From a virus (taxonomy: Duplodnaviria; Heunggongvirae; Uroviricota; Caudoviricetes), in the IMG/VR virus record IMGVR_UViG_3300045988_002471, positions 1 through 41,003 of that record: DNA of 41,003 bases. The stretch is one strand, 5' to 3'. Below are positions 1-41,003 of the stretch, one piece after another. Position 1 is the stretch's first letter. Each line of letters starts with the position of its first letter. Below the pieces are notes generated by a model. That model had not been told where the DNA came from. It made no database searches and was given only the letters and a program-made list of their open reading frames with translations. Position numbers and translations under genes: made by a program.

Positions 1-55
1 ATGCGCCGCGCGTACAAAGACGGTTAATTCTGTACTGGCGGAAGAACTTGAAGAC
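1..55. repeat. 55-bp direct duplication of window end (identical to 40949..41003); circular closure / terminal redundancy
   Basis: Bases 1..55 are identical to 40949..41003 by direct reading; an ORF reads through the junction in frame. Confidence 0.9.
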
Positions 56-4063: not shown

Positions 4064-4355
4064 GGGGCGCATCCAGAAATACGCAAAAGAGCGATTCGAG
4101 GCCCTCGGTGGCCTCGTTCGAAAGCTGTCTTATGAGGGGCGCTCAGGCGCCCCCGACCTGCTGGTAATTCTTCCCGGCGGCATCGTCTGGTTCGTCGAGG
4201 TTAAGAAAGACGAAAACACGAAGCCAGACCCGCACCAGATACGTGAGCACGAGCGGATGCGTAAACGCGGTGCAAATGTTTTTGTAGTTGGTTCGCTCAA
4301 ACAGGTTGACGACCTAATAGCAAACTATTATAGTAGTCATACACCAACAATATAA
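4050..4355 (+). CDS. VRR-NUC domain nuclease (PD-(D/E)XK)
   Basis: 101 aa with GAPDLLVI...VWFVEVKK (D...E-V-K) core; RBS GAGGGG upstream. Confidence 0.7.
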   Translation: MSTPEGRIQKYAKERFEALGGLVRKLSYEGRSGAPDLLVILPGGIVWFVEVKKDENTKPDPHQIREHERMRKRGANVFVVGSLKQVDDLIANYYSSHTPTI

Positions 4356-6616: not shown

Positions 6617-6620
6617 AGAA

Positions 6621-6648
6621 AAGGCCCCGTTTGGGGCCTTAGTTTTAT
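6621..6648 (+). terminator. Rho-independent terminator (AAGGCCCC-gttt-GGGGCCTT + T-run) ending the plus-strand early operon; convergent with tailspike 3' end
   Basis: Perfect 8-bp GC stem then AGTTTTATTT. Confidence 0.7.
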
Positions 6649-9611: not shown

Positions 9612-12167
9612 TTAATTAAAACCATCGCTGAATCCGTCGGAGAAACCGCTGCCGTATGGCGCGACGCCGTCGTATTTATAGAAACCTTCATCATAGTTGT
9701 AGCCAGTAATCTTGACCGTGCGGTCGTCGCCCGGGTCGATTGAAGAAACAACTATCTTCTGTGCATTATGCCTTGCTTCGTTGCCGAATGAAAACTCAGT
9801 TTTTAGTGCGCTATTCCCTGTGTAGATTGCTTCCTCCGGCGCCGATAGCATAATCACCTCGCGGTCGTGGCTTCCTTGAATAACGGAGATACTCTGCACT
9901 GAGCCGTCGCGCTTCTTAAGAATGATGGAGTGGTCATCGCCCGCGGTAAACGTAACAGGCTGCGACAGCGTCAGCGTAAGCCCATTAACGGCAACAACAT
10001 AGCCGTCTTGTGGCGCAATACGCGAGCCTTTAACCACGCTGATTACGCCGCCGGGAGTAGCGAGCGCACCTTCTTCAGTAGCTTCGAACTCTACGACAAC
10101 TTTACTTAACGCATTGCGCTGATATCGACGCCACGCAAGCCAGTACGCCTGCTGGTAGTTGCGCACGCCCTTCGATTCGTATTCCTCAGTGTTTGCGCCG
10201 AGTTCTTCCGGGATATAAATAGTTTCCCGTACGTTAGTATCTGGGTCGATGTACGAGAACGAAAGGCTATCGTAGGTAGTCGAATCGTTGAACGTGCGGG
10301 TCCATTTCTCTGTACCGGTAGTTTTGCTGCGGTGGGTGAACACCATTTCAGGCCCCGCAACCGGACGGTCGAATCGCAACATAATATCCGCACCTTTACG
10401 GTACGCAGTACAGAAAACGGCTTCCGCTATGGTCTGAACAATGTCCTGCATCGTGGTGTCGTAGTCGTCGAACGTGTAGCAGAATTGTCCGGCTAATTCG
10501 CTGCCAAAATAGGACTCAATTTCTTCCTGCACAGCGAGTAACTTATCCATATTTGCCGTTGTCAGTTCCAGATTACCCACCGCCGGGTCTCGAGCCAGTC
10601 TGATTAGAGATTGCACGGCCTGAGTATTTGGGGTCATTACAGTATCGAACGTCCCATTGCCGAGGTATTTGTAGCACATCTCGGTCGCAATCATGCGCAG
10701 TTCCGGGTTGTCTATACTCGCCGCCCGCGGGGTCTGTTTACGGGCGCAATGTACGGTAGTTCGGTTGCCGTAGTGCGGTGTGGGGTCCAGAGACTGACCG
10801 TACAGGTTGATGAAGGTTATCTCGTCACTTACCGTGCCGTTGTAGTCTTTATCGAAATTCGTTATACGGCGCATGCGGGCGCGGAAACGCGATGCGGTTG
10901 GCAACTGCCCATAAATGGACGTGCCGACGTAATCCGTGCTATTACCAGTAATCGTAGCCTGTACCGTGTAAATATCGCTCAACGGGTTGCGTTGAGAATC
11001 AATCATCTGGTACTGGAGTTCTACGGTTACGCTGGTGCGGTTATAGCCGCCGTCGTATTTGTAGAGGCCGTTCTGCCCGGCAACGTTAGCAAGTACCCGG
11101 TCAACCTCTCCGCGCACCATGTAATACCAGTCCGTAAGAGATACGTCATAGGTGTTGCTTGGGCCTATAAACGTATCCGAACGCTCTGTAAGTGCGTAAG
11201 TCTCCCCGTTATTAAGGTTACCCCAGTTACCTATATCCCCGACGTACAACCGAACCTCAAAGTCGTCGACGTATAAAACTTCAAACGAGCCGTTTAGGTT
11301 AGTGACGTCCTTAACGTCGAAATTGCTCAACACTGCGACATCACCAACACTAAGAAACTCAGAAAAAGCAGAGTCACCCGACGGGTCATATAGGTAGCCG
11401 GTGGTCGAAATACGTTTGGCGGTTCCACCGGAGCTTGGGTTAGCTCCAATGTCGTTTGGCGCTTTCAGTACAATACCGTCAACGTCGTCGTTAGAGTACG
11501 TCACATAGAGTTTCTGGTCGATGACGTCGCCGATTTGTAGTTGCGGCGATGTGGTGTTGTTCGGTGACGTATACGGCGCGTATACGGCAACAGAGGAACC
11601 TGTGATGTCGCTTATCAGGGTGTCACCTTCCGTGACGCCATCCGCCTCAATATGCAGATGTCCGCGCCCGGCGTCGTAGTACGAATACTCCAGCAAAGCA
11701 CCAGTGGAGTTGAACGCCTTATACGTCTGCATCATGTCGTTAGGGATTGTCTGCACAGTCCCGCAGATGTCATAAGAGCGCTCGTAAGGGCGCGGCTTGT
11801 TTGAGCGGTCGGTAAGGCTGTTATTTGGCGATGTTGTCTGGTTATTAGTCGCCGTGTAGTTGGCGTTTGCAGACATGTTCAGGCCGAGCAACTTAGCGAT
11901 TGGCTTAAGGATAAAACCAAACACCTTACTAACGGCACCAAGCGCCCCGCTACCAGCGCCCTCAATAATGTGGTATACCGCGTCTTCATCTTTAAGCGCG
12001 TCGAAGTCGTCGGTGACATCAGTATCGTCACCAATCTCACCGAGGTAGACGCGCACCGGCACACCGTCCGGGATACGGTTAACGACAAACTCCATCGGCA
12101 TCCCGACGTGTTTTGTACGGTCGAAAGCGCCATCAGCGTTTCGCGTGTAGTGCAGGATTATCGCCAA
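9612..12167 (-). CDS. Large distal tail protein (tail tip / host-specificity J-like)
   Basis: 851 aa, between minor tail genes and tailspike. Confidence 0.5.
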   Translation of the reverse strand: MAIILHYTRNADGAFDRTKHVGMPMEFVVNRIPDGVPVRVYLGEIGDDTDVTDDFDALKDEDAVYHIIEGAGSGALGAVSKVFGFILKPIAKLLGLNMSANANYTATNNQTTSPNNSLTDRSNKPRPYERSYDICGTVQTIPNDMMQTYKAFNSTGALLEYSYYDAGRGHLHIEADGVTEGDTLISDITGSSVAVYAPYTSPNNTTSPQLQIGDVIDQKLYVTYSNDDVDGIVLKAPNDIGANPSSGGTAKRISTTGYLYDPSGDSAFSEFLSVGDVAVLSNFDVKDVTNLNGSFEVLYVDDFEVRLYVGDIGNWGNLNNGETYALTERSDTFIGPSNTYDVSLTDWYYMVRGEVDRVLANVAGQNGLYKYDGGYNRTSVTVELQYQMIDSQRNPLSDIYTVQATITGNSTDYVGTSIYGQLPTASRFRARMRRITNFDKDYNGTVSDEITFINLYGQSLDPTPHYGNRTTVHCARKQTPRAASIDNPELRMIATEMCYKYLGNGTFDTVMTPNTQAVQSLIRLARDPAVGNLELTTANMDKLLAVQEEIESYFGSELAGQFCYTFDDYDTTMQDIVQTIAEAVFCTAYRKGADIMLRFDRPVAGPEMVFTHRSKTTGTEKWTRTFNDSTTYDSLSFSYIDPDTNVRETIYIPEELGANTEEYESKGVRNYQQAYWLAWRRYQRNALSKVVVEFEATEEGALATPGGVISVVKGSRIAPQDGYVVAVNGLTLTLSQPVTFTAGDDHSIILKKRDGSVQSISVIQGSHDREVIMLSAPEEAIYTGNSALKTEFSFGNEARHNAQKIVVSSIDPGDDRTVKITGYNYDEGFYKYDGVAPYGSGFSDGFSDGFN

Positions 12168-15805: not shown

Positions 15806-16130
15806 GATTTCTACCTTCAAAGATTGCTTCTAAGCCCATGATAATGTCTATCTCGAACAGGCTAAGCTGTTTTTGCGTAACATCGAGATAGGCTTTCAGG
15901 TCTTGCCACGTAACAGATTCTCTTGCAAACAATACTACAGCGTCCTCGCGCACGTGTCGCGTAAACTTAATGTCGCAATACGTCTCAAAGGTGGATATAA
16001 AAAGGGGCGGGCATTCTGGCCCGCCCCGTCGCGCTGCACGTTTTTTCTTATCGATTACACCCATCGCGATAAGCGCCTGTTCGTGTCCGTCGGCGATAGA
16101 ATCAAACTCTCTGATTTTATGCTTATCCAC
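15798..16130 (-). CDS. Tail assembly chaperone T-like frame, probably expressed as a G-T fusion by -1 frameshift
   Basis: Frame is open from 16181 with no ATG; -1 relative to the upstream gene; GGAAAAG at 16166..16172. Confidence 0.45.
   Translation of the reverse strand: MDKHKIREFDSIADGHEQALIAMGVIDKKKRAARRGGPECPPLFISTFETYCDIKFTRHVREDAVVLFARESVTWQDLKAYLDVTQKQLSLFEIDIIMGLEAIFEGRNHG
16004..16035 (-). terminator. Intragenic terminator-like hairpin (GGGGCGGGC-N6-GCCCGCCCC then TTTTTATAT on minus strand) inside the T-like frame
   Basis: Perfect 9-bp GC stem at 16004..16027 with a U-run on the coding strand. Confidence 0.45.
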
Positions 16131-16687: not shown

Positions 16688-16716
16688 TTGCACACCCCAA
16701 TATAATAGGGTACTAT
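16688..16716 (+). promoter_or_regulatory. Promoter TTGCAC-N17-TACTAT with operator-like palindrome (16703..16720) driving the plus-strand island
   Basis: -35 at 16688..16693, -10 at 16711..16716; the ~38-bp block recurs at 34662..34700 and 35663..35700. Confidence 0.55.
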
Positions 16717-16746
16717 TCACTTACACCAACAATGAAGGGGTTTAAA

Positions 16747-19143: not shown

Positions 19144-19180
19144 GAAAAAAAAAAAGGCCCCGAAAGGGGCCTTAGTTTTA
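19144..19180. terminator. Bidirectional rho-independent terminator (A-run, AAGGCCCC-gaaa-GGGGCCTT, T-run)
   Basis: Perfect stem flanked by A12 and T-run between convergent genes. Confidence 0.75.
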
Positions 19181-20350
19181 TGCGTAGGTGATACGTTGAA
19201 TTACGATAGACGACTGGTACTGATTGCCGGTAGCCTGGCCTTCAATGGACTGAGTGATTGACTCAGGCCCACCAATCTCAGGTGTAACCGCCGTAAGCTC
19301 TGCACGTTTCAAACTGAAAGACATAGCCCCGTTTACCCCTGCCAGAATAGAGTTAATCTCTACCTGCTGCTCGTTGATAAACTTCTGAATCATCGCCATG
19401 TCGTACAGCTTGCCAGAGATAGAGAATGTGTTAGCTGCGCGTCCACGTTCGACGAACGCCACGCTACTGTTACCGAGTTCGAACTGCGCGGAAGCTCCGT
19501 TGTCGTTGGTGATGGTGAGAGTATCGCAACGCAACGGCGTGGAGCCATCGAACACCGACACATCTACCGACGAGAACGGCTCATCGGTGAACGTAACCTG
19601 AGAGAAATCAGAGCCAGACGGCGACGCGGTAAGAATCTCCTGACTCAGGCCGATGAACGGGAAGCTGCCGGTGACCATGGCGTTAACCGCCTGCTCTACG
19701 GTAAAGCCAGAGATTTCCACACCTTTGGTCAGCATGTACGCGTCCGGGGTACCACACTGGCCCTTGAACCACGTCAGGATGGAGAACGTCTTACACGCGT
19801 TACCGGTTTCCAGCTTGTCGCCAGTTTTTGCGTCAGTGGTTACTGTCTCTGCTGTCAGCGTGTGCTGAATACCTGCGCCCGTAACTACCAGAGCGGAAAC
19901 CGCGGTCACGATAAACGGTTTTGCGTTGTCGCCGGTTAAGTCGGTGAACGCAATCAGGTCGCCAACTTCAACGCCGTCGGTAATAAAGCTGCCATCGGCA
20001 CGGGTGAACGTCTTGCCTGCGGGTGCAACGGTAATCGATAACCCTGACAGAGAAACCCCGGACTGCCACGTAGAGCCTAAAGCGCCCGCCAGCCAGTCGT
20101 CCTGGCTTTTCGAGCTAAGCTCAATTGCGTACTCCCCGCTAACCTGTTTGTTGCCGGTGCGGATGGAGGTAGTTTCACGGCTGCCGTCCAGTTCGTTGGA
20201 TGTCAGTGTGTCGCGGGTAATGGCAGGAACGCCACCCGTGTTACGCAACGGCGACCATACCGGGTTAGTCGGTGTTACACCCGGGGTCGCTTCCGCCACA
20301 TAGAATTGCGCCGTATTCGCGCCCTTAAAAGGAGTTGTAGCCATATTCAC
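19178..20350 (-). CDS. Major tail protein (putative)
   Basis: 390 aa; directly downstream of tail-completion genes; ATGA coupling. Confidence 0.55.
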   Translation of the reverse strand: MNMATTPFKGANTAQFYVAEATPGVTPTNPVWSPLRNTGGVPAITRDTLTSNELDGSRETTSIRTGNKQVSGEYAIELSSKSQDDWLAGALGSTWQSGVSLSGLSITVAPAGKTFTRADGSFITDGVEVGDLIAFTDLTGDNAKPFIVTAVSALVVTGAGIQHTLTAETVTTDAKTGDKLETGNACKTFSILTWFKGQCGTPDAYMLTKGVEISGFTVEQAVNAMVTGSFPFIGLSQEILTASPSGSDFSQVTFTDEPFSSVDVSVFDGSTPLRCDTLTITNDNGASAQFELGNSSVAFVERGRAANTFSISGKLYDMAMIQKFINEQQVEINSILAGVNGAMSFSLKRAELTAVTPEIGGPESITQSIEGQATGNQYQSSIVIQRITYA

Positions 20351-22828: not shown

Positions 22829-22858
22829 AAAAGGGGCCGTAGCCCCTTTGTTTTTACC
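22829..22858 (-). terminator. Terminator-like hairpin after the capsid gene (AGGGGC-tacg-GCCCCT + T-run on minus strand)
   Basis: GC stem plus TTTTTAC just 3' of the capsid stop. Confidence 0.5.
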
Positions 22859-24549: not shown

Positions 24550-24813
24550 CTATTCCAGAATATTCCTCACATAATCCTGCAACATGAACACTTTCAGTCT
24601 CAACTGCCGTACACATTCGGCGTTCTGAACGTCGATAGCTAAATCCTCGTCAGAGTCGCTACTTGGCGCCGCCAGTTTGCACGGCGGCTGCATCATCGTC
24701 GTATCCGGGGATGGAATTGGCGTTTGCGACGGCGCGGGACTTGAGCAGGACGCGAGCATCATCGAAAGTGCACACGCTGCGACCCGGCGTTTTAATGTAC
24801 TTAACGACTTCAC
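24550..24813 (-). CDS. o-spanin (Rz1-like outer-membrane lipoprotein), overlapped with i-spanin
   Basis: Lipobox-like MMLASC then Pro-rich periplasmic region; starts inside i-spanin in a different frame. Confidence 0.55.
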   Translation of the reverse strand: MKSLSTLKRRVAACALSMMLASCSSPAPSQTPIPSPDTTMMQPPCKLAAPSSDSDEDLAIDVQNAECVRQLRLKVFMLQDYVRNILE

Positions 24814-25045
24814 GGGTGATTACCTCTGATTTCGTCTTGCCTTCGTTATCAGCGGCGGCGGCCTTTGATTCATCCTGCTGCTGCCGTTGTGTTTTCTTCG
24901 CTAACTCAGCCTGTGCTTCCTGCTGTTGCTGCGAAACGAGATTCGCCCGGCCTTCGTTCCAGCCGCTGTGATACTGGTAGATGCCGTGGGCATAAGTCAG
25001 GATGATAAAACATGCCCCCGCTACGACAGTTGCTTTAAGATTCAT
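24659..25045 (-). CDS. i-spanin (Rz-like)
   Basis: N-terminal TM helix ATVVAGACFIILTYAHGIY then Gln/Ala-rich coiled coil. Confidence 0.6.
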   Translation of the reverse strand: MNLKATVVAGACFIILTYAHGIYQYHSGWNEGRANLVSQQQQEAQAELAKKTQRQQQDESKAAAADNEGKTKSEVITREVVKYIKTPGRSVCTFDDARVLLKSRAVANANSIPGYDDDAAAVQTGGAK

Positions 25046-25071
25046 GTTTCCCCTTTCTCGATAAGTAAAGC

Positions 25072-25096
25072 CCCGCCTTAAAGCGGGGCGCTAGTC
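25072..25096 (-). terminator. Terminator-like hairpin (GCCCCGC-N6-GCGGGGC + U-rich tail) in the leader just upstream of the spanin RBS
   Basis: 7-bp GC stem then TTTACTTAT on the minus strand. Confidence 0.45.
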
Positions 25097-25168
25097 CTTA
25101 TCATTTAAACATAGAAACGGCGTAATCTCAGTAAACCAGTTACTTTTTACACAAGCAATAGAGTATGG

Positions 25169-25263
25169 CCCTTCCGAACGCGTCAGCGTAACTACACTCA
25201 GGACTTACGTCCCGCTCCGTTACCTGCCCGCGCCGCGGTCGCTTGTTCATACTTCACAAGCTC
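25169..25263 (-). ncRNA. Candidate structured leader RNA / cis-regulatory element, copy A
   Basis: Conserved blocks shared with 35876..35971; two hairpins at matching positions with different sequences; dedicated upstream promoter. Confidence 0.4.
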
Positions 25264-25269
25264 AGGTGG

Positions 25270-25298
25270 AGCTTAGCACATTTTCAGTGAAAAGTCAA
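25270..25298 (-). promoter_or_regulatory. Promoter TTGACT-N14-TGc-TAAGCT (extended -10) for element copy A
   Basis: -35 at 25298..25293, -10 at 25275..25270; same promoter at 35978..36006. Confidence 0.45.
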
Positions 25299-25361
25299 CT
25301 ATTCGAATAGTTTATTCCAACATTTACAATTATGTGGAATAACTGGAATAATCACAGGCGC

Positions 25362-25385
25362 TAAAAAGCCCCTTTCGGGGCTTAA
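25362..25385 (-). terminator. Rho-independent terminator after the Ig-like gene
   Basis: AAGCCCC-tttc-GGGGCTT with T-run on the minus strand. Confidence 0.6.
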
Positions 25386-25387
25386 GT

Positions 25388-25849
25388 TTATTCTGGCTTC
25401 GTAGCCTTCGCAGCTTTACTCACCGCCTCAACTCCAGTGGCATCAGTAACTTTAACGAAGTATTCACCCACCGCGTTAACCGTCAGAGACAAAGCCTCTT
25501 CCGGGGCGTTTACCACTTCCTTGCCGTCTTTGTACCAGGTCAGAGTATACGGCGCTTTACCTGCCTTAACTTCGACGGTGATGGTGGCGCTACCGTCGAC
25601 CAGCTCGGTGTCTTTCGGTTGCACCGAGAAATACACGTCACCTGCATCCGCCAGATACGGAATCTCGTAAAGCATACCCGCCGCGGGCAACGCAATGCCC
25701 GTTTTATCTGCAAACGGCATATCGTCTACAGGGGTACCCAGTACACTTTCATCATCAATAAACACCACGTTCTCACCAGAGCCAGACACGCGGGCGTACT
25801 GGACTACGCGACGTGACGGTACATCAGTTACTTTGAAAAAGCCCATCAT
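25388..25849 (-). CDS. Ig-like domain structural protein (possible head decoration)
   Basis: C-terminal TITVEVKAGKAPYTLTWYKDGKEV...EYFVKVTDATG; start overlaps upstream stop. Confidence 0.5.
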   Translation of the reverse strand: MMGFFKVTDVPSRRVVQYARVSGSGENVVFIDDESVLGTPVDDMPFADKTGIALPAAGMLYEIPYLADAGDVYFSVQPKDTELVDGSATITVEVKAGKAPYTLTWYKDGKEVVNAPEEALSLTVNAVGEYFVKVTDATGVEAVSKAAKATKPE

Positions 25850-27692: not shown

Positions 27693-27720
27693 AAGGCCCC
27701 TAGCGGGGCCTTTCTATTTA
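27693..27720 (+). terminator. Rho-independent terminator (AAGGCCCC-tagc-GGGGCCTT + T-rich) between KilA-N gene and portal 3' end
   Basis: Perfect 8-bp stem then TCTATTTA. Confidence 0.6.
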
Positions 27721-34661: not shown

Positions 34662-34700
34662 AAATGAATAGTAGCCTATTCTATCTTAGTGTGCAAGTAA
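34662..34700 (-). promoter_or_regulatory. Promoter TTGCAC-N17-TACTAT with palindromic operator GAATAGTAGCCTATTC (34666..34681)
   Basis: Perfect 6-bp half-site inverted repeat overlapping the -10. Confidence 0.55.
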
Positions 34701-34877: not shown

Positions 34878-35001
34878 TGTTGCATCTCCTGCAATAGTCG
34901 CTTCGATTGTTGCGTTTGATGAAAGTGTCGCCTTTTGACGACACTAAGTTAAAGTTGTACGCTGCTGTGTAGCAGCGTAAGTCATTAAGCCAAATAGTAA
35001 G

Positions 35002-35163
35002 CTATTGACCTGTTACACCACCTGTTACACCGGCACGATATTGCACACCAGCTTTCCACGCCCGCCACGCAAGACGCGTCTTAACGTTCAGGTACTCTTT
35101 CTTCGAACCCTTGTTAACTGGCAGACCCTCGACGACGGCCCACCGCTCAAATGCTTCTCTCAT
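35002..35163 (-). CDS. Small ORF (53 aa)
   Basis: Own translation MREAFERWAVVEGLPVNKGSKKEYLNVKTRLAWRAWKAGVQYRAGVTGGVTGQ; RBS GGAGGA. Confidence 0.3.
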   Translation of the reverse strand: MREAFERWAVVEGLPVNKGSKKEYLNVKTRLAWRAWKAGVQYRAGVTGGVTGQ

Positions 35164-35634: not shown

Positions 35635-35662
35635 TTCTAAATTCCTTATGTCTCGTTTCGAT

Positions 35663-35700
35663 AAGTGAATAGTAACCTATTATGTTGGGGTGTGCAAGAT
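35663..35700 (-). promoter_or_regulatory. Promoter TTGCAC-N18-TACTAT with operator GAATAGTAACCTATTA (35667..35682)
   Basis: About 38-bp block nearly identical to the reverse complement of 16688..16725. Confidence 0.55.
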
Positions 35701-35875
35701 AATAGTTACGTTGCCGTTGTGATTCTTTCGTTTCTTAAAAGAGTACGCAACGCAGTGGGTGGGCGTTAGCCCACCCCAGCGGAGTGAAGTACTCTCTACC
35801 TTGCTCACGGCAACTATAGAAACTTTTAATTATCAGTGACTTGGATATTTAGGCGGGATTAACAATAGACTTTGA

Positions 35876-35971
35876 CCCTTCCGAAAGCGTCAGCGGAACT
35901 ACACTCAAGTGCCTAATGGCACGCGTTGCGTTCCCTGCCGCTCCGCGGTCGCTTGCGATATCTCACAAGCT
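35876..35971 (-). ncRNA. Candidate structured leader RNA / cis-regulatory element, copy B
   Basis: Shares conserved blocks with 25169..25263; hairpin GTGCC-atta-GGCAC at 35909..35922 replaces GGAC-ttac-GTCC of copy A. Confidence 0.4.
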
Positions 35972-35977
35972 CAGTGA

Positions 35978-36006
35978 AGCTTAGCATATTTTCAAGTAAA
36001 AGTCAA
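35978..36006 (-). promoter_or_regulatory. Promoter TTGACT-N14-TGc-TAAGCT for element copy B
   Basis: -35 at 36006..36001, -10 at 35983..35978; conserved with copy A. Confidence 0.45.
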
Positions 36007-36626: not shown

Positions 36627-38912
36627 ATGTCCGATGTAATTTTATCCTACTCGTGGTCACGCCGCAACGCGCGGGCGGGAAAAAAGGATATAAATGTCAG
36701 AACCGCACACACGGCAACACTGGACGACCTGAAAGAGTTAATCCAGCCGCTCGATGCCGTTCGCGACGGGATTAACCCTAAGACCGCGCCCGGTTATATC
36801 ACCGCCGCGTGCGACTCAACGCACAGCACCGTAAAAGACCCGGAAACTGGAGACTTTAAGCAAGCGCGTAAAGGTTTTTTCTACCGCTGCGATGCGTCTG
36901 TAAGCAAATCGTCGCTGGCCTATCTGGATTTCGACAGCACAACACCGGAAGAGTATCAGGAAGCGGTGCGCCTGGTTAAGCGCAGCCGCTGGGCCATGTG
37001 CCTCTATACCACGGCATCACATACTGATGAGTCACCGCGCTTTCGCGTCGTAATGCCACTGGCCCGTCCGGTGGAGGGTGGTGACATCATCCGTGTTCGT
37101 CATGGGTTGCTGGAGCACTTCTTCAAAGGCATGGGTGCGGACCGCAGCGGGTTCACTCTGTCGCAGCCGATGTACCTGCCGCCGGTTGGCTCTACCGTTA
37201 TCTGGTCGCGCCGTAACGACCTGATTGACCCGGACGAATTACTGGAAGGCGTACCGGATTACGAGGTGAGCAGCGCCTCGGATTACCAGATACCGGAAGA
37301 ACTGCGCACTGCGTTTACTGATGCGTTCGAGGCACTGGCGTTTGAGTACGGTGGCGTCATGACGCCTCGTGGCCTTAAAATGCCCGCTACGCCAGAACAC
37401 GCGGAGAACTACAGCGACCCGACGCCGCGCCCGGACGACTTCCTGCTGTGTTTCCCGCGCGAGGGATATGAAGCGCCTAACGTAACAATGATTCACGACA
37501 CCGACATTACGGCGACCGAAGGCATGTCACCGAAAGAGGTGTGGAAGTACGCGTGCGATGCGACCGGGCTGCCGTTCAGTGAAGTCGCAGAGGCCATCGG
37601 TTGGGGGGCGCGTGAATCTGTCTCATGCAGCCTCGACGACCTGGAAGACGACGAGGACTCAGAGGAGGACGAGTTACCAGAACCGGTAAAGGCTGATTTC
37701 GTCGTTGAGGGGTACATGCCGTCGGATTGTATCTGGGATATTGTCGGGGAATCCGGCACGTACAAATCATTCTATACGCTGGGGATGATGTACCTGAGCG
37801 CCGCCGGGTACCGGTTTGCGGGGGCTGACACCCAACGTTGCCACCATTTCTATATTGACGGCGAGGGTGGTGCAGCTACACGAACACGTATTGATGCACT
37901 CGCGGCTAAATATGGCGAGGAAGGTAAAGATTATGTACATGTCATCGATATGGGCGAAATACTCGCTACGCATGGTGATAAAAAAATTCCAGCTCTAATC
38001 CGCAGGATGCGCGAAACCGCAGGGGATGAACCTATTGGCATGGTTGCCTTCGACACCCTTAACCAGACGCTGGCCCTGACGATTGATAAGTTCGACGAGA
38101 ATAGTTCATCAACAGCAATCGGCATGGGTAAAGTTATCGCCATTCTGAAAGAAGTACGCGATGCAACTAAAGCCGCAGTAGGCGTTGTCCACCATACGCC
38201 GAAGGGTGGAAAGAAAGCACGCGGCAGTGGGGCGCTGTATGCGGGTGTTGACGTGGAACTGACAATCGAACGTGCAACCGACCGTCAGATAAACGTATAT
38301 CACTCGAAATTCAAGCACGGGCCTCAGCAGAAGACGGTTGGCATGGTGCTGGAGTCGGTACAGTTCCGTGAAGCGCCGCCGCCTAAAGAATACCGAGCGG
38401 TTGAGTTCCTGGGTAGCACAGAGGAATACGGCACAATCGTAAACCTGGACCTGCCTGAACCACACAAGGCGCTTGTGTTGATGCCGTGGGGTTTCGAGCC
38501 GTTCAAAACTGACGAGGAGAAAGAGCGGGAAGAAGGGTTGACGAAAGAAGGTAAAGAAAATGTACGTAAAACCGTAGAGAACGCCGTCAACAGTTCGGAG
38601 GCCACGATACTCGCGGCGTTTGAACTGGCGGAAGGAACCTACAACGGCAACGAGGGCATCACGGTATCCGCAGCGAATAAGCTCGCGCAGTCTGACCCCA
38701 ACGCAAAGGCGTTTAACTCCAAAGAAGCCATAGAACGCGGGAAGATTAAGAAAATGGTTGAGGCTGGGTATCTTGTTCCGGGTACTGACGAAAACAATCA
38801 GATAATCACAGGCCGTTACAGGCTGAATACCCGGATAACGGATAACAAGATTCCGAAGACACTATACGAACCGAATGAAATGCTGGTGGTGACCGAGGAT
38901 GATTTGGAATAA
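36627..38912 (+). CDS. Replication protein: primase-like N-terminal region fused to RecA-like ATPase/helicase
   Basis: 761 aa; Walker A GESGTYKS and Walker B-like VAFDTLN in the C-terminal half; N-terminal primase assignment is inferred. Confidence 0.6.
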   Translation: MSDVILSYSWSRRNARAGKKDINVRTAHTATLDDLKELIQPLDAVRDGINPKTAPGYITAACDSTHSTVKDPETGDFKQARKGFFYRCDASVSKSSLAYLDFDSTTPEEYQEAVRLVKRSRWAMCLYTTASHTDESPRFRVVMPLARPVEGGDIIRVRHGLLEHFFKGMGADRSGFTLSQPMYLPPVGSTVIWSRRNDLIDPDELLEGVPDYEVSSASDYQIPEELRTAFTDAFEALAFEYGGVMTPRGLKMPATPEHAENYSDPTPRPDDFLLCFPREGYEAPNVTMIHDTDITATEGMSPKEVWKYACDATGLPFSEVAEAIGWGARESVSCSLDDLEDDEDSEEDELPEPVKADFVVEGYMPSDCIWDIVGESGTYKSFYTLGMMYLSAAGYRFAGADTQRCHHFYIDGEGGAATRTRIDALAAKYGEEGKDYVHVIDMGEILATHGDKKIPALIRRMRETAGDEPIGMVAFDTLNQTLALTIDKFDENSSSTAIGMGKVIAILKEVRDATKAAVGVVHHTPKGGKKARGSGALYAGVDVELTIERATDRQINVYHSKFKHGPQQKTVGMVLESVQFREAPPPKEYRAVEFLGSTEEYGTIVNLDLPEPHKALVLMPWGFEPFKTDEEKEREEGLTKEGKENVRKTVENAVNSSEATILAAFELAEGTYNGNEGITVSAANKLAQSDPNAKAFNSKEAIERGKIKKMVEAGYLVPGTDENNQIITGRYRLNTRITDNKIPKTLYEPNEMLVVTEDDLE

Positions 38913-39209: not shown

Positions 39210-39238
39210 TTGACACGTGAATAGTTCGCTATTATAGT
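39210..39238 (+). promoter_or_regulatory. Promoter TTGACA-N17-TATAGT with embedded operator GAATAGTTCGCTATTA (39219..39234)
   Basis: Consensus -35 and near-consensus -10; operator occupies the spacer. Confidence 0.65.
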
Positions 39239-40104: not shown

Positions 40105-41003
40105 TTCTTAAAGAACGCGGTGGAAATAACGATGTTCACGCATTACTGTCGCCGTCTGGGGCTAAAAAGTGGCTAAGCTGTGCCGCATCACTGGCCTGTG
40201 AGAAAGATATTCCTAACTCGTCCGGCAAAGCTGCCGTATTAGGTACAGCAATGCACACCATAGCAGAGATGCATCTTAACCAGTACATCAAAGGCACTGC
40301 GCTGCCGTTAGAGCGCGAAGTCGGGGCTTACGTGCTGGATGAAGGTAAAGGCCAGATTAAGGCTCTAATCAGCCCGATGAAAGGCGCGGTACTTATTACG
40401 GCGGACATGATTGAACAGGTGCGCAAGTACACCGACTACTGCAAAGCGATTATAGACGTAGCTACTTACGCTAAGCTGGAAATGCGCGTCAATCTTACAC
40501 AGATTCTACACCCCGGGTACAAAGTACCCGTTGAAGGTGAAGAAGGCGAGGAAGATGATTTAGAGACGTTCGGAACGGCTGACCTTGTTGCCGTTCAGGA
40601 ACTGGCTAACACCGACGAGTACATGCTCATTATTGGCGACCTTAAAACGGGTCGGCATCGTGTCGAAGCGAAAGAAAACAAGCAGCTTATGCTTTACGCT
40701 CTCGGTGTTTATCGCAGACTCAAGAGACGTTATAACATCACCGTTGTCCGTCTGGTTATCTTCCAGCCGTACGCGGGCGGTGCGTCGGAGTGGGACATCT
40801 CGGTTGAGGGACTTGAACTGTTCGCTAAGTTCGCACAGAAACGGGCGCTGTTGGCCCTTGATGCCTATTTCCGTGGTAAGAAGAACCTGAAAGCGTCGGA
40901 CTTCAAGCCATCAGCCGATGGTTGCCAGTGGTGCCGGTTCTCTGAACAATGCGCCGCGCGTACAAAGACGGTTAATTCTGTACTGGCGGAAGAACTTGAA
41001 GAC
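40101..41003 (+). CDS. PD-(D/E)XK exonuclease, Cas4-like / DUF2800-like, N-terminal part (continues as 1..436 across the junction)
   Basis: Own translation from ATG 40101 (ATGA overlap with upstream stop): GTADLV...IGDLKTG nuclease motifs, QLMLYALG (QxxxY) motif, N-terminal C..C and C-terminal CQWCRFSEQC cysteine cluster; no stop before window end. Confidence 0.7.
   Translation, partial: MILKERGGNNDVHALLSPSGAKKWLSCAASLACEKDIPNSSGKAAVLGTAMHTIAEMHLNQYIKGTALPLEREVGAYVLDEGKGQIKALISPMKGAVLITADMIEQVRKYTDYCKAIIDVATYAKLEMRVNLTQILHPGYKVPVEGEEGEEDDLETFGTADLVAVQELANTDEYMLIIGDLKTGRHRVEAKENKQLMLYALGVYRRLKRRYNITVVRLVIFQPYAGGASEWDISVEGLELFAKFAQKRALLALDAYFRGKKNLKASDFKPSADGCQWCRFSEQCAARTKTVNSVLAEELED
40949..41003. 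repeat. Second copy of the 55-bp junction duplication
   Basis: Identical to 1..55. Confidence 0.9.

Follow-up and report, generated by a model that had tools for sequence, protein, structure and literature searches.

Two Copies of a Block at the Head of Leftward Transcription Units

What is encoded in the 342-bp gap that separates the Hoc/Ig-like gene (edge at 25388) from the Rz-like spanin gene (start at 25045) of a phage genome, and why does a block from this gap recur elsewhere in the same genome? The window, i.e., the whole stretch of 41,003 bp that was analyzed, showed 92–96% identity to Escherichia phages of the genus Kagunavirus, subfamily Guernseyvirinae, and by its sequence is a complete Kagunavirus (Guernseyvirinae) genome. 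An exact 55-bp duplication at the ends of the window (1–55 and 40949–41003) probably represents the assembly overlap of a circularly permuted or terminally redundant genome. The extent of the gap, as proposed in an earlier reading of the letters without database searches (the sequence-only reading), was borne out by the gene bounds, and copy A of the block lies inside it. Past the spanin gene, the scaffold, major capsid, head-completion and major tail genes are found.

The sequence-only reading had described the repeated block at 25169–25298 and 35876–36006. Both copies were recovered, the second one extending over 35870–36006, and the shared strings were located where that reading had placed them. 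A repeat search matched 25156–25200 to 35863–35907 at 89%, and the alignment of copies A and B with their flanks had a mean column identity of 81%. The repeat is far above chance. With covariance model R1, built from relatives, only two matches were obtained in the window, i.e., copies A and B, with E-values of 5e-27 and 2e-16, respectively, the E-values of the models used here being rough. According to the ORF map, both copies are located at the head of long leftward multigene transcription units (Table 1).

Table 1. Features of the two element loci and related sites. Coordinates refer to the window unless another record is named; CM, covariance model.
Feature	Position	Strand	Basis or remark
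Hoc-like/Ig-like head decoration gene	25388–25849	minus	PHROGs
Rz-like spanin gene	24659–25045	minus	PHROGs
Element copy A: P1 hairpin, P2-P3-P4 long hairpin, GGAAGGGCC tail	25163–25268	minus	CM 128.8 bits (model R1), 114.8 bits (model R2); folds; covariation
P1, 5'-terminal hairpin GCUUGU/ACAAGC	25241–25261	minus	folds; Jerseyvirus has UACGCU/AGCGUA (compensatory)
P2, 5' strand CCG[C]GGCGCG	25229–25238	minus	invariant save one covarying pair; two invariant G·U pairs
P2, 3' strand CGCGUUCGG	25174–25182	minus	alignment
P3 (CAG|GUAAC / GUUAC-G-CUG), internal loop (GGA / GAGUGUA), apical P4 (GGGAC-GUAA-GUCCU, 25200–25213)	25184–25226	minus	folds, covariation
Single-stranded tail GGAAGGGCC	25167–25175	minus	invariant in 42/42 aligned members; retained in the diverged phiEap-2 version
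Element copy B: P1 35951–35970; P2 35939–35948 with 35881–35889; P4 35909–35922; tail 35874–35882	35870–35977	minus	CM 81.2 bits (R1), 102.7 bits (R2)
Promoter P_A: −35 TTGACT 25293–25298; 17-nt spacer ending TGC (extended −10); −10 TAAGCT 25270–25275	25270–25298	minus	pattern count, conserved architecture
Promoter P_B: TTGACT-14-TGC-TAAGCT, cassette identical to P_A	35978–36006	minus	pattern count
P_A upstream control region: palindrome ACTATTCGAATAGT 25298–25311 abutting −35, plus three TTATTCC/GGAATAA repeats (25312, 25336, 25345)	25298–25351		sequence
AATAG-N4-CTATT copies	451–464, 4316–4329, 16704–16717, 34667–34680, 34993–35006, 35668–35681, 39220–39233
Intrinsic terminator t_A: GCCCCGC-UUUAAG-GCGGGGC then UUUACUUAUC	25060–25089	minus	terminator scan; stem variants; phage Sciku annotation
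GC-rich hairpin GGGUGGGC-UAAC-GCCCACCC, no U-tract	35757–35776	minus	about 95–100 nt past copy B; not called terminator-like
Canonical intrinsic terminator in the P_A operon, just past the major capsid gene: AAAGGGGC-UAC-GGCCCCUUU then UUUUAC	22830–22849	minus	terminator scan
GGG(C/U)C-N3-5-(C)UAU(A)UUG motif	25150–25166, 35857–35873; L066 10712–10730, ~40495–40515

Coding Potential and Known RNA Families

No ORF of at least 50 aa lies over either copy in the ORF map. A protein-coding reading was rejected: only type A has an ATG in its P1 loop, with none in type B or in Jerseyvirus, and indels of 1, 2 and 4 nt separate the types. In phage Sciku, a 36-codon ORF over the element (L001 2036–2146) is annotated as hypothetical protein CPT_Sciku_007, and the annotation of a 'hypothetical protein' over the element in several GenBank records is likely a mis-annotation.

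The Rfam search with covariance models that the sequence-only reading had proposed returned no family reaching threshold: Rfam 15 gave no match at the gathering threshold in the whole window, and at E ≤ 10 only three sub-threshold matches were obtained on 25050–25330, with 14–16 bits as compared to thresholds of 35–70. ARAGORN detected neither a tRNA nor a tmRNA in the window. A tRNA-Ser(tga) call made by ARAGORN and in a GenBank record for Salmonella phage wast (L040 1014–1092; wast 10477–10554), antisense to the late genes, overlaps the 3' end of the Hoc-like gene and the terminator of that gene; this call is probably spurious because the window has no tRNA.

Literature searches retrieved no description of the element, and one RNA-seq paper on a Kagunavirus gives timing at the gene level only. 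The element is a previously undescribed RNA, probably a promoter-proximal cis-regulatory leader, which may represent a new class of antiterminator RNA.

The Element Folds into Two Neighboring Stem-Loops Supported by Covariation

Relatives were gathered by pattern scans of IMG/VR and metagenomes, and phages from GenBank were added. The sequence types comprised A_K (Kagunavirus and some Salmonella phages), B1, B2 and B3 (second copies of some Kagunaviruses) and A_J1-3 (Jerseyvirus). Model R1 was built from five sequences and recovers all other types. When each type was folded singly, a common architecture emerged, consisting of a 5' P1 hairpin, a linker of 0–2 nt, P2, P3, an internal loop, a variable apical P4 and the tail. 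P1 plus P2-P4 span 84–99 nt as two neighboring stem-loops. The consensus of P2 is CCG[C]GGNGCG with CGCN'UUCGG, and that of the tail is GGAAGGG(C/U)C.

The covariation alignment held 42 matches, i.e., 31 distinct sequences from Kagunavirus, Jerseyvirus and metagenomes. Standard pairs filled 96.7% of the cells in the 31 distinct sequences as compared to 28–42% with the partners slid by 1–3 columns, and two-sided changes were observed in 15 of the 28 pairs, the alignment having been fitted to the model, which favors structure. The observed covariation score was reached by none of 500 shuffles. RNAalifold independently gave P1-P4, together with two extra pairs flanking P4, and the single-sequence folds agreed. 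The sole variable pair in P2 is C-G in 14, U-A in 13 and A-U in 3 sequences. P1 and P4 have wholly different sequences between types, yet pair every time, and their loops vary freely among types.

The sequence-only reading had pointed to pairing that is kept between blocks of differing sequence, and the alignment of the copies with homologous phages that it had suggested confirmed this, with stems that hold across the 31 distinct sequences and changes that are compensatory. GGAC-ttac-GTCC at 25201–25212 and GTGCC-taat-GGCAC at 35909–35922 were both present and both self-pairing, and the P1 arms GCTTGT...ACAAGC and GCTTG...CAAGC were found at 25241–25261 in copy A and at 35951–35970 in copy B, respectively. 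Its proposal of a noncoding structured element on the minus strand is thus supported by the fold, by the compensatory stem changes and by the lack of a shared ORF. The RNA is assigned to the minus strand, downstream of the promoter, because the two invariant G·U pairs of P2 would be A·C on the opposite strand.

In total, 38 alignment columns are invariant, loops and tail included, and the primary sequence of P2 is frozen even where it is paired. This bears on the possibility that the element is an mRNA stabilizer or a processing signal, in which P1 blocks 5'-end-dependent decay and/or the long hairpin is an RNase III site. RNase III sites are known in T7 early mRNAs and in the lambda N leader, and the T7 sites have the format of a long helix with internal loops. 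The P2-P4 helix, of about 24 bp with internal loops, shares this format, and in every main type, P1 starts no more than about 2 nt from the inferred 5' end. However, such signals need shape rather than sequence, whereas the primary sequence is conserved here as described, and a simple 5' hairpin would be enough for protection. We consider a role in stability or processing improbable.

Each Copy Is Preceded by the Same Extended −10 Promoter

The same extended −10 promoter had been noted ahead of each copy, and a pattern count agreed: TTGACT-N14-TGC-TAAGCT occurs twice in the window as compared to 0.02 expected occurrences, both times on the minus strand directly upstream of the copies. Promoters of the same architecture are present in Jerseyvirus (TAGACT-17-TGT-TACGCT) and in Enterobacter phage phiEap-2 (TGGACT-17-TGA-TAACCT). 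A generic sigma-70 scan did not call P_A, since its −10 hexamer alone is weak (3/6). In all types, P1 begins 3–5 nt past the −10 hexamer, and from the −10 spacing alone the transcription start would be placed about 0–2 nt from P1.

A second −10-like hexamer is found just past the −10, namely TGAGCT in Kagunavirus and, as an exact repeat, TACGCT in Jerseyvirus. A sigma-dependent pause element was not adopted, as the Kagunavirus hexamer is without the critical A at position 2 and phiEap-2 is without the repeat.

The TTATTCC/GGAATAA repeats upstream of P_A (window 25312–25351) are also found upstream of the Jerseyvirus and phiEap-2 elements and are absent upstream of copy B and P_B. They are candidate binding sites of a late activator. 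The palindrome CTATTCGAATAG, which abuts the −35 of P_A, is related to the inverted repeat AATAG-N4-CTATT, of which the window contains 7 copies as compared to 0.05 expected. Each of these copies is located between the −35-like and −10-like hexamers of a promoter-like site, with TTGACA-17-TATAGT at 441, 4306 and 39210, and the repeat has the appearance of an operator or promoter motif that is specific to the phage.

A longer block, AAGTGAATAGTA(A/C)CCTATTAT(G/A)TTGGGGTGTGCAAG, is common to 35658–35706 (plus strand) and 16700–16745 (minus strand). At 16700 it is oriented toward the tail operon, and at 35658 it is directed rightward, antisense across copy B and P_B, toward the HTH and replication genes. 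Since the promoter-like block at 35658 points through copy B, this copy may also be transcribed antisense.

The surroundings of copy B would also suit a role in replication, be it at the DNA level or through a primer RNA, as a transcript-primed origin or a single-strand initiation signal. Copy B lies at a divergent early control region and at the minimum of the cumulative GC skew. The phage's own replication genes follow downstream of the divergent promoters, with a primase-helicase-sized ORF of 761 aa at 36627–38912, and homologues in relatives are annotated as DNA polymerase I and helicase-primase. However, the universal copy A sits between head genes, far from the skew extremes, copy B is present in a minority of phages only, and the skew tracks gene orientation anyway. 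Moreover, the G·U pairs and the coupling to a promoter point to RNA. A replication role is thus extremely improbable.

Hairpins Downstream of the Element Fold Independently of It

The terminator-like hairpin that had been noted at 25072–25096, about 70 nt after the element and ahead of the spanin ribosome-binding site, proved to be a canonical intrinsic terminator (t_A). It is located 73 nt past copy A and about 15 nt ahead of the spanin ribosome-binding site. In the terminator scan, it showed the 8 pairs (7 of them G-C), 4-nt loop and U-rich tail of an intrinsic terminator, and the hairpin 25070–25089 followed by TTTACTTATC scored as terminator-like. The stem of t_A covaries, with the variants CCCTGC/GCAGGG and CCCAGC/GCTGGG, and the record of phage Sciku labels it a terminator. 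Stable hairpins also follow copy B, B3 and the Jerseyvirus copy, but these have no U-tract and thus are not canonical terminators. The hairpin stems after both copies of the window are preserved through compensatory changes.

The promoter scan revealed no promoter-like site between t_A and the spanin-scaffold-capsid genes. Since there is no promoter-like site between t_A and these genes for abundant structural proteins, their expression would need efficient readthrough of t_A. Similarly, the second canonical terminator of the P_A operon (22830–22849) implies that the head-completion and major-tail genes need readthrough or another promoter.

The spacer between the element and the hairpin is 70–105 nt long and differs in length and sequence between types. 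In folds of both full leaders, A and B, the element and the downstream hairpin formed independently, and no alternative antiterminator pairing between element and terminator was found. An expression platform of the attenuator or riboswitch type was rejected, since element and hairpin fold independently and there is no competition with the terminator stem. Independent folding and the variable spacer fit processive rather than attenuator-type control. A riboswitch-like ligand sensor acting on the downstream hairpin would account for conserved nucleotides in the internal loop and junction, variable peripheral helices and a leader ahead of a terminator. Nevertheless, no Rfam match was obtained even at E ≤ 10, the context contains no metabolic gene, the pairing of the element does not compete with the terminator across an unconserved spacer of 70–105 nt, and most of the downstream hairpins are not canonical terminators. 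A ligand sensor is very unlikely.

The distance from promoter to hairpin, about 190–200 nt for P_A to t_A and about 210 nt for P_B to its hairpin, would also be that of a small noncoding RNA gene, whose product acts in trans on targets in the host or the phage, or sequesters a host protein. Readthrough would then be a side effect, lambda 6S/PR'-tR' and oop being examples. Such a gene would consist of the parts seen here, namely a promoter, a structured RNA and, without an intervening ORF, a canonical terminator, and the invariant single-stranded GGAAGGG could serve as a seed. In addition, leader A as a whole, spacer and terminator included, shows stronger conservation than the neighboring genes. 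However, spacer and hairpin are not conserved among the A_K, A_J and B types, and the B and Jerseyvirus hairpins are without U-tracts. A trans target of the GGAAGGG tail within the phage was sought and rejected, as no complementary CCCUUCC was found on any phage transcript in the window. Furthermore, both units lie exactly where operon promoters are needed, and there is no alternative promoter ahead of the genes. A small RNA gene, with readthrough as a by-product, is regarded as rather unlikely.

Terminators are not confined to operons headed by the element; this idea was rejected, because the tail operon, which is without an element, carries a strong terminator-like hairpin at 16004–16027 on the minus strand (9 G-C pairs followed by UUUUU). 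This hairpin is located within a tail-assembly-chaperone-like gene region upstream of the tape measure gene and could be a terminator or a frameshift stimulator. Near-identical hairpins of the form AAGGCCCC-N4-GGGGCCTT were observed at operon boundaries (6619–6648, 19152–19181, 25363–25392 and 27693–27712). They look like bidirectional terminators, and the one at 19154–19173 has a minus-strand T run.

Distribution and History of the Two Copies

Copy A, upstream of the spanin-scaffold-capsid operon, was found in about 450 phage records. Of the 181 matching phage records (Escherichia, Salmonella, Raoultella and Shigella), 179 contained type A_K at ≥95% identity, and the Jerseyvirus type was present in 268 further records, always as a single copy and at the same position. 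PhiEap-2 carries a diverged version at the same site that scored just 14.6 bits and has kept the promoter, CGUAAC/GUUACG and CGGAAGGGCC. The metagenome pattern scan yielded the same sequence types only, other matches being GC-rich coding sequences, and complete E. coli genomes contained no copy of the element.

A second copy was found in only about 29–43 Kagunavirus records. In 398 Guernseyvirinae records, the position of copy B is occupied by another leader, conserved and structured, which is about 330 nt long and carries a TTGACT promoter of its own as well as a strong terminator. Since most Guernseyvirinae carry this other leader there, copy B is read as a promoter-plus-RNA cassette swapped for the 5' module of the early-left leader. 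By this distribution, copy A is the ancestral, near-universal copy, and copy B is a cassette that a minority of phages acquired by exchange within another leader; the sequence-only reading had noted neither point.

In Salmonella phage wast (L066 40310–40640, plus strand), the alternative leader folds strongly (z = −2.9) and has 5' hairpins and a GGGCAGG/CCUGCCC-UUUAGUU terminator. The alternative early-left leader is possibly a second undescribed family of leader RNAs of equivalent role. The motif GGG(C/U)C-N3-5-(C)UAU(A)UUG occurs after both copies, after the Jerseyvirus copy and in this unrelated wast leader; as DNA, it includes an AATAG half-site.

Exchange between the copies was visible in an IMG/VR contig (3300045988_039442; L058 2215–2321), where a B2-type core (P3/P4) lies within A-type flanks at the A position, a sign that the two copies have undergone recombination or gene conversion with each other. 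A weak model match (13 bits, E = 2.1) was obtained antisense within tail gene gp37 of wast (L066 27242–27342, minus strand). It comprises exact ACCGCGGU...AUUCGGAAGGGC and an adjoining small hairpin, has no promoter, and is either a chance match or a decayed copy.

In the Salmonella phages FSL SP-101, LSPA1 and SETP13, leader A (25050–25300) is 92–100% identical to the window, as compared to 60–90% for the flanking genes. Conservation of the whole 250-bp leader, including spacer and terminator, is as compatible with a discrete RNA gene of about 190 nt or a recombining module as it is with a cis element.

Comparison with Known Antitermination Systems

The put RNAs of phage HK022 comprise about 70 nt in two stem-loops, and putL starts at +3 of the PL transcript. 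They bind the zinc-binding domain of the beta' subunit, and no phage protein is needed. In the cryo-EM structure of put, the 5' strand pairs into the loop of stem I (triplex/pseudoknot), and a single G is found at the stem junction.

The element resembles put in being present in two copies per genome, on the nascent RNA directly downstream of a sigma-70 promoter. Like put, it forms two adjacent stem-loops with internal loops and non-canonical pairs within about 70–100 nt, a likeness of architecture only, with the start placed by inference. Both are located upstream of terminators at the head of long operons, the predicted terminators being 25070–25089 and 22830–22849 in this case. The fixed distance of 3–5 nt between −10 and P1 and the two adjacent irregular hairpins were counted toward a put-like reading.

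The sequence-only reading had drawn an analogy to put. As relatedness, this was not borne out, and a put homologue was rejected: at E ≤ 10, neither R1 nor R2 had a match in the complete genome of HK022, and when aligned locally to putL the element scored 12–18 as compared to a shuffle mean of about 14, which is not significant. Secondary-structure tools revealed no conserved complementarity of the tail or the 5' end with any loop and no evident put-like pseudoknot or triplex. Whereas put belongs to lambdoid temperate phages, where it is associated with PL and PR, the element belongs to virulent Guernseyvirinae, and its conserved copy heads a structural (late) operon.

The late unit of lambda (PR'-qut-6S RNA-tR' with Q) offers the same order of promoter, untranslated RNA of about 190 nt, intrinsic terminator, and lysis and structural genes. 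In contrast to lambda, no Q gene is annotated or recognized in the relatives, and the conserved feature is a covarying RNA fold rather than a DNA element bound by Q with a sigma-dependent pause.

Nut-type sites of lambda and rrn share with the element a leader hairpin beside a short pyrimidine-rich motif, in the rrn order of hairpin and then boxA. This raises the possibility of a protein-dependent leader site, nut-like or operator-like, in which a phage protein or a host Nus protein binds the internal loop or tail. Binding would load an antitermination complex or control the fate of the leader, and timing would be set by the protein. The strict conservation of loops, bulge and tail in primary sequence is in line with such a site, as are the apparent regulator sites upstream of P_A and a pyrimidine-rich motif after both copies (ACUCUAUUG / AGUCUAUUG / AGCUAUAUUG) that is weakly similar to boxA GCUCUUUA. 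On the other hand, the best boxA-like strings, ACUCUAUU and AGUCUAUU, match boxA (CGCUCUUA / GCUCUUUA) at only 4–5 of 8 positions. The loops of the hairpins vary, nothing like a boxB hairpin of constant loop sequence was found, and no N- or Q-like gene is annotated in the relatives, so that the element does not qualify as nut. No ORF for an early factor lies between element and hairpin, and the element hardly changes between phages with proteins that differ by 10–40%. We therefore regard a protein-dependent site as unlikely.

The eps-associated RNA (EAR) is a structured cis-acting RNA in or ahead of a long operon that promotes terminator readthrough. The element is likewise a structured RNA at a long operon, for which a readthrough role is proposed here by analogy; unlike EAR, it has no Rfam match and differs in fold and host range.

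A Putative Antiterminator Leader RNA

The reading that we tentatively prefer, and that is quite possibly correct, is a leader RNA that acts in cis and modifies RNA polymerase such that it antiterminates, as an analogue of put. Host sigma-70 RNA polymerase would initiate at the extended −10 promoter of each cassette, and the first 85–100 nt or so would fold into the 5' P1 hairpin and then the irregular P2-P3-P4 hairpin with its invariant base and two G·U pairs. The folded RNA would also bear a bulged C, a purine-rich internal loop and the GGAAGGG tail, and the nascent RNA would remain bound to the polymerase that made it. The polymerase modified in this way would resist pausing and termination, so that transcription could cross the hairpin 70–100 nt downstream and later terminators of the operon, e.g., the one after the major capsid gene. 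It might also escape Rho on long untranslated leaders. In this scheme, we infer the transcription start, the contact with RNA polymerase and antitermination itself.

The primary sequence stays invariant among Escherichia, Salmonella and Raoultella phages, which suggests that a conserved macromolecule, e.g., host RNA polymerase, recognizes it. In some phages, the cassette stands in place of the 5' part of another conserved leader, which argues for a portable, self-contained function. The three annotated relatives that were examined have no antiterminator protein in their annotation. Against antitermination, the hairpins after copy B and the Jerseyvirus copy are without U-tracts and may not terminate, Jerseyviruses have one copy only, and the terminator-like hairpin of the tail operon is not preceded by an element.

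A more far-reaching version of the proposed antitermination function, which we consider somewhat doubtful, is that the element constitutes a second, evolutionarily independent class of factor-independent antiterminator RNA with an unrelated fold. Hundreds of virulent Escherichia and Salmonella phages would carry it as a portable cassette of promoter and RNA that drives their structural-gene operon. To our knowledge, put is the only RNA family that makes bacterial RNA polymerase termination-resistant alone. If true, a second, unrelated fold in E. coli and Salmonella would show how RNA reprograms RNA polymerase. The compact promoter-plus-leader cassette could serve as an expression part. Many Guernseyvirinae phages have been proposed for therapy. 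Whatever the mechanism, an unannotated and strongly covarying RNA lies ahead of the head and lysis operon in about 450 sequenced Guernseyvirinae phages.
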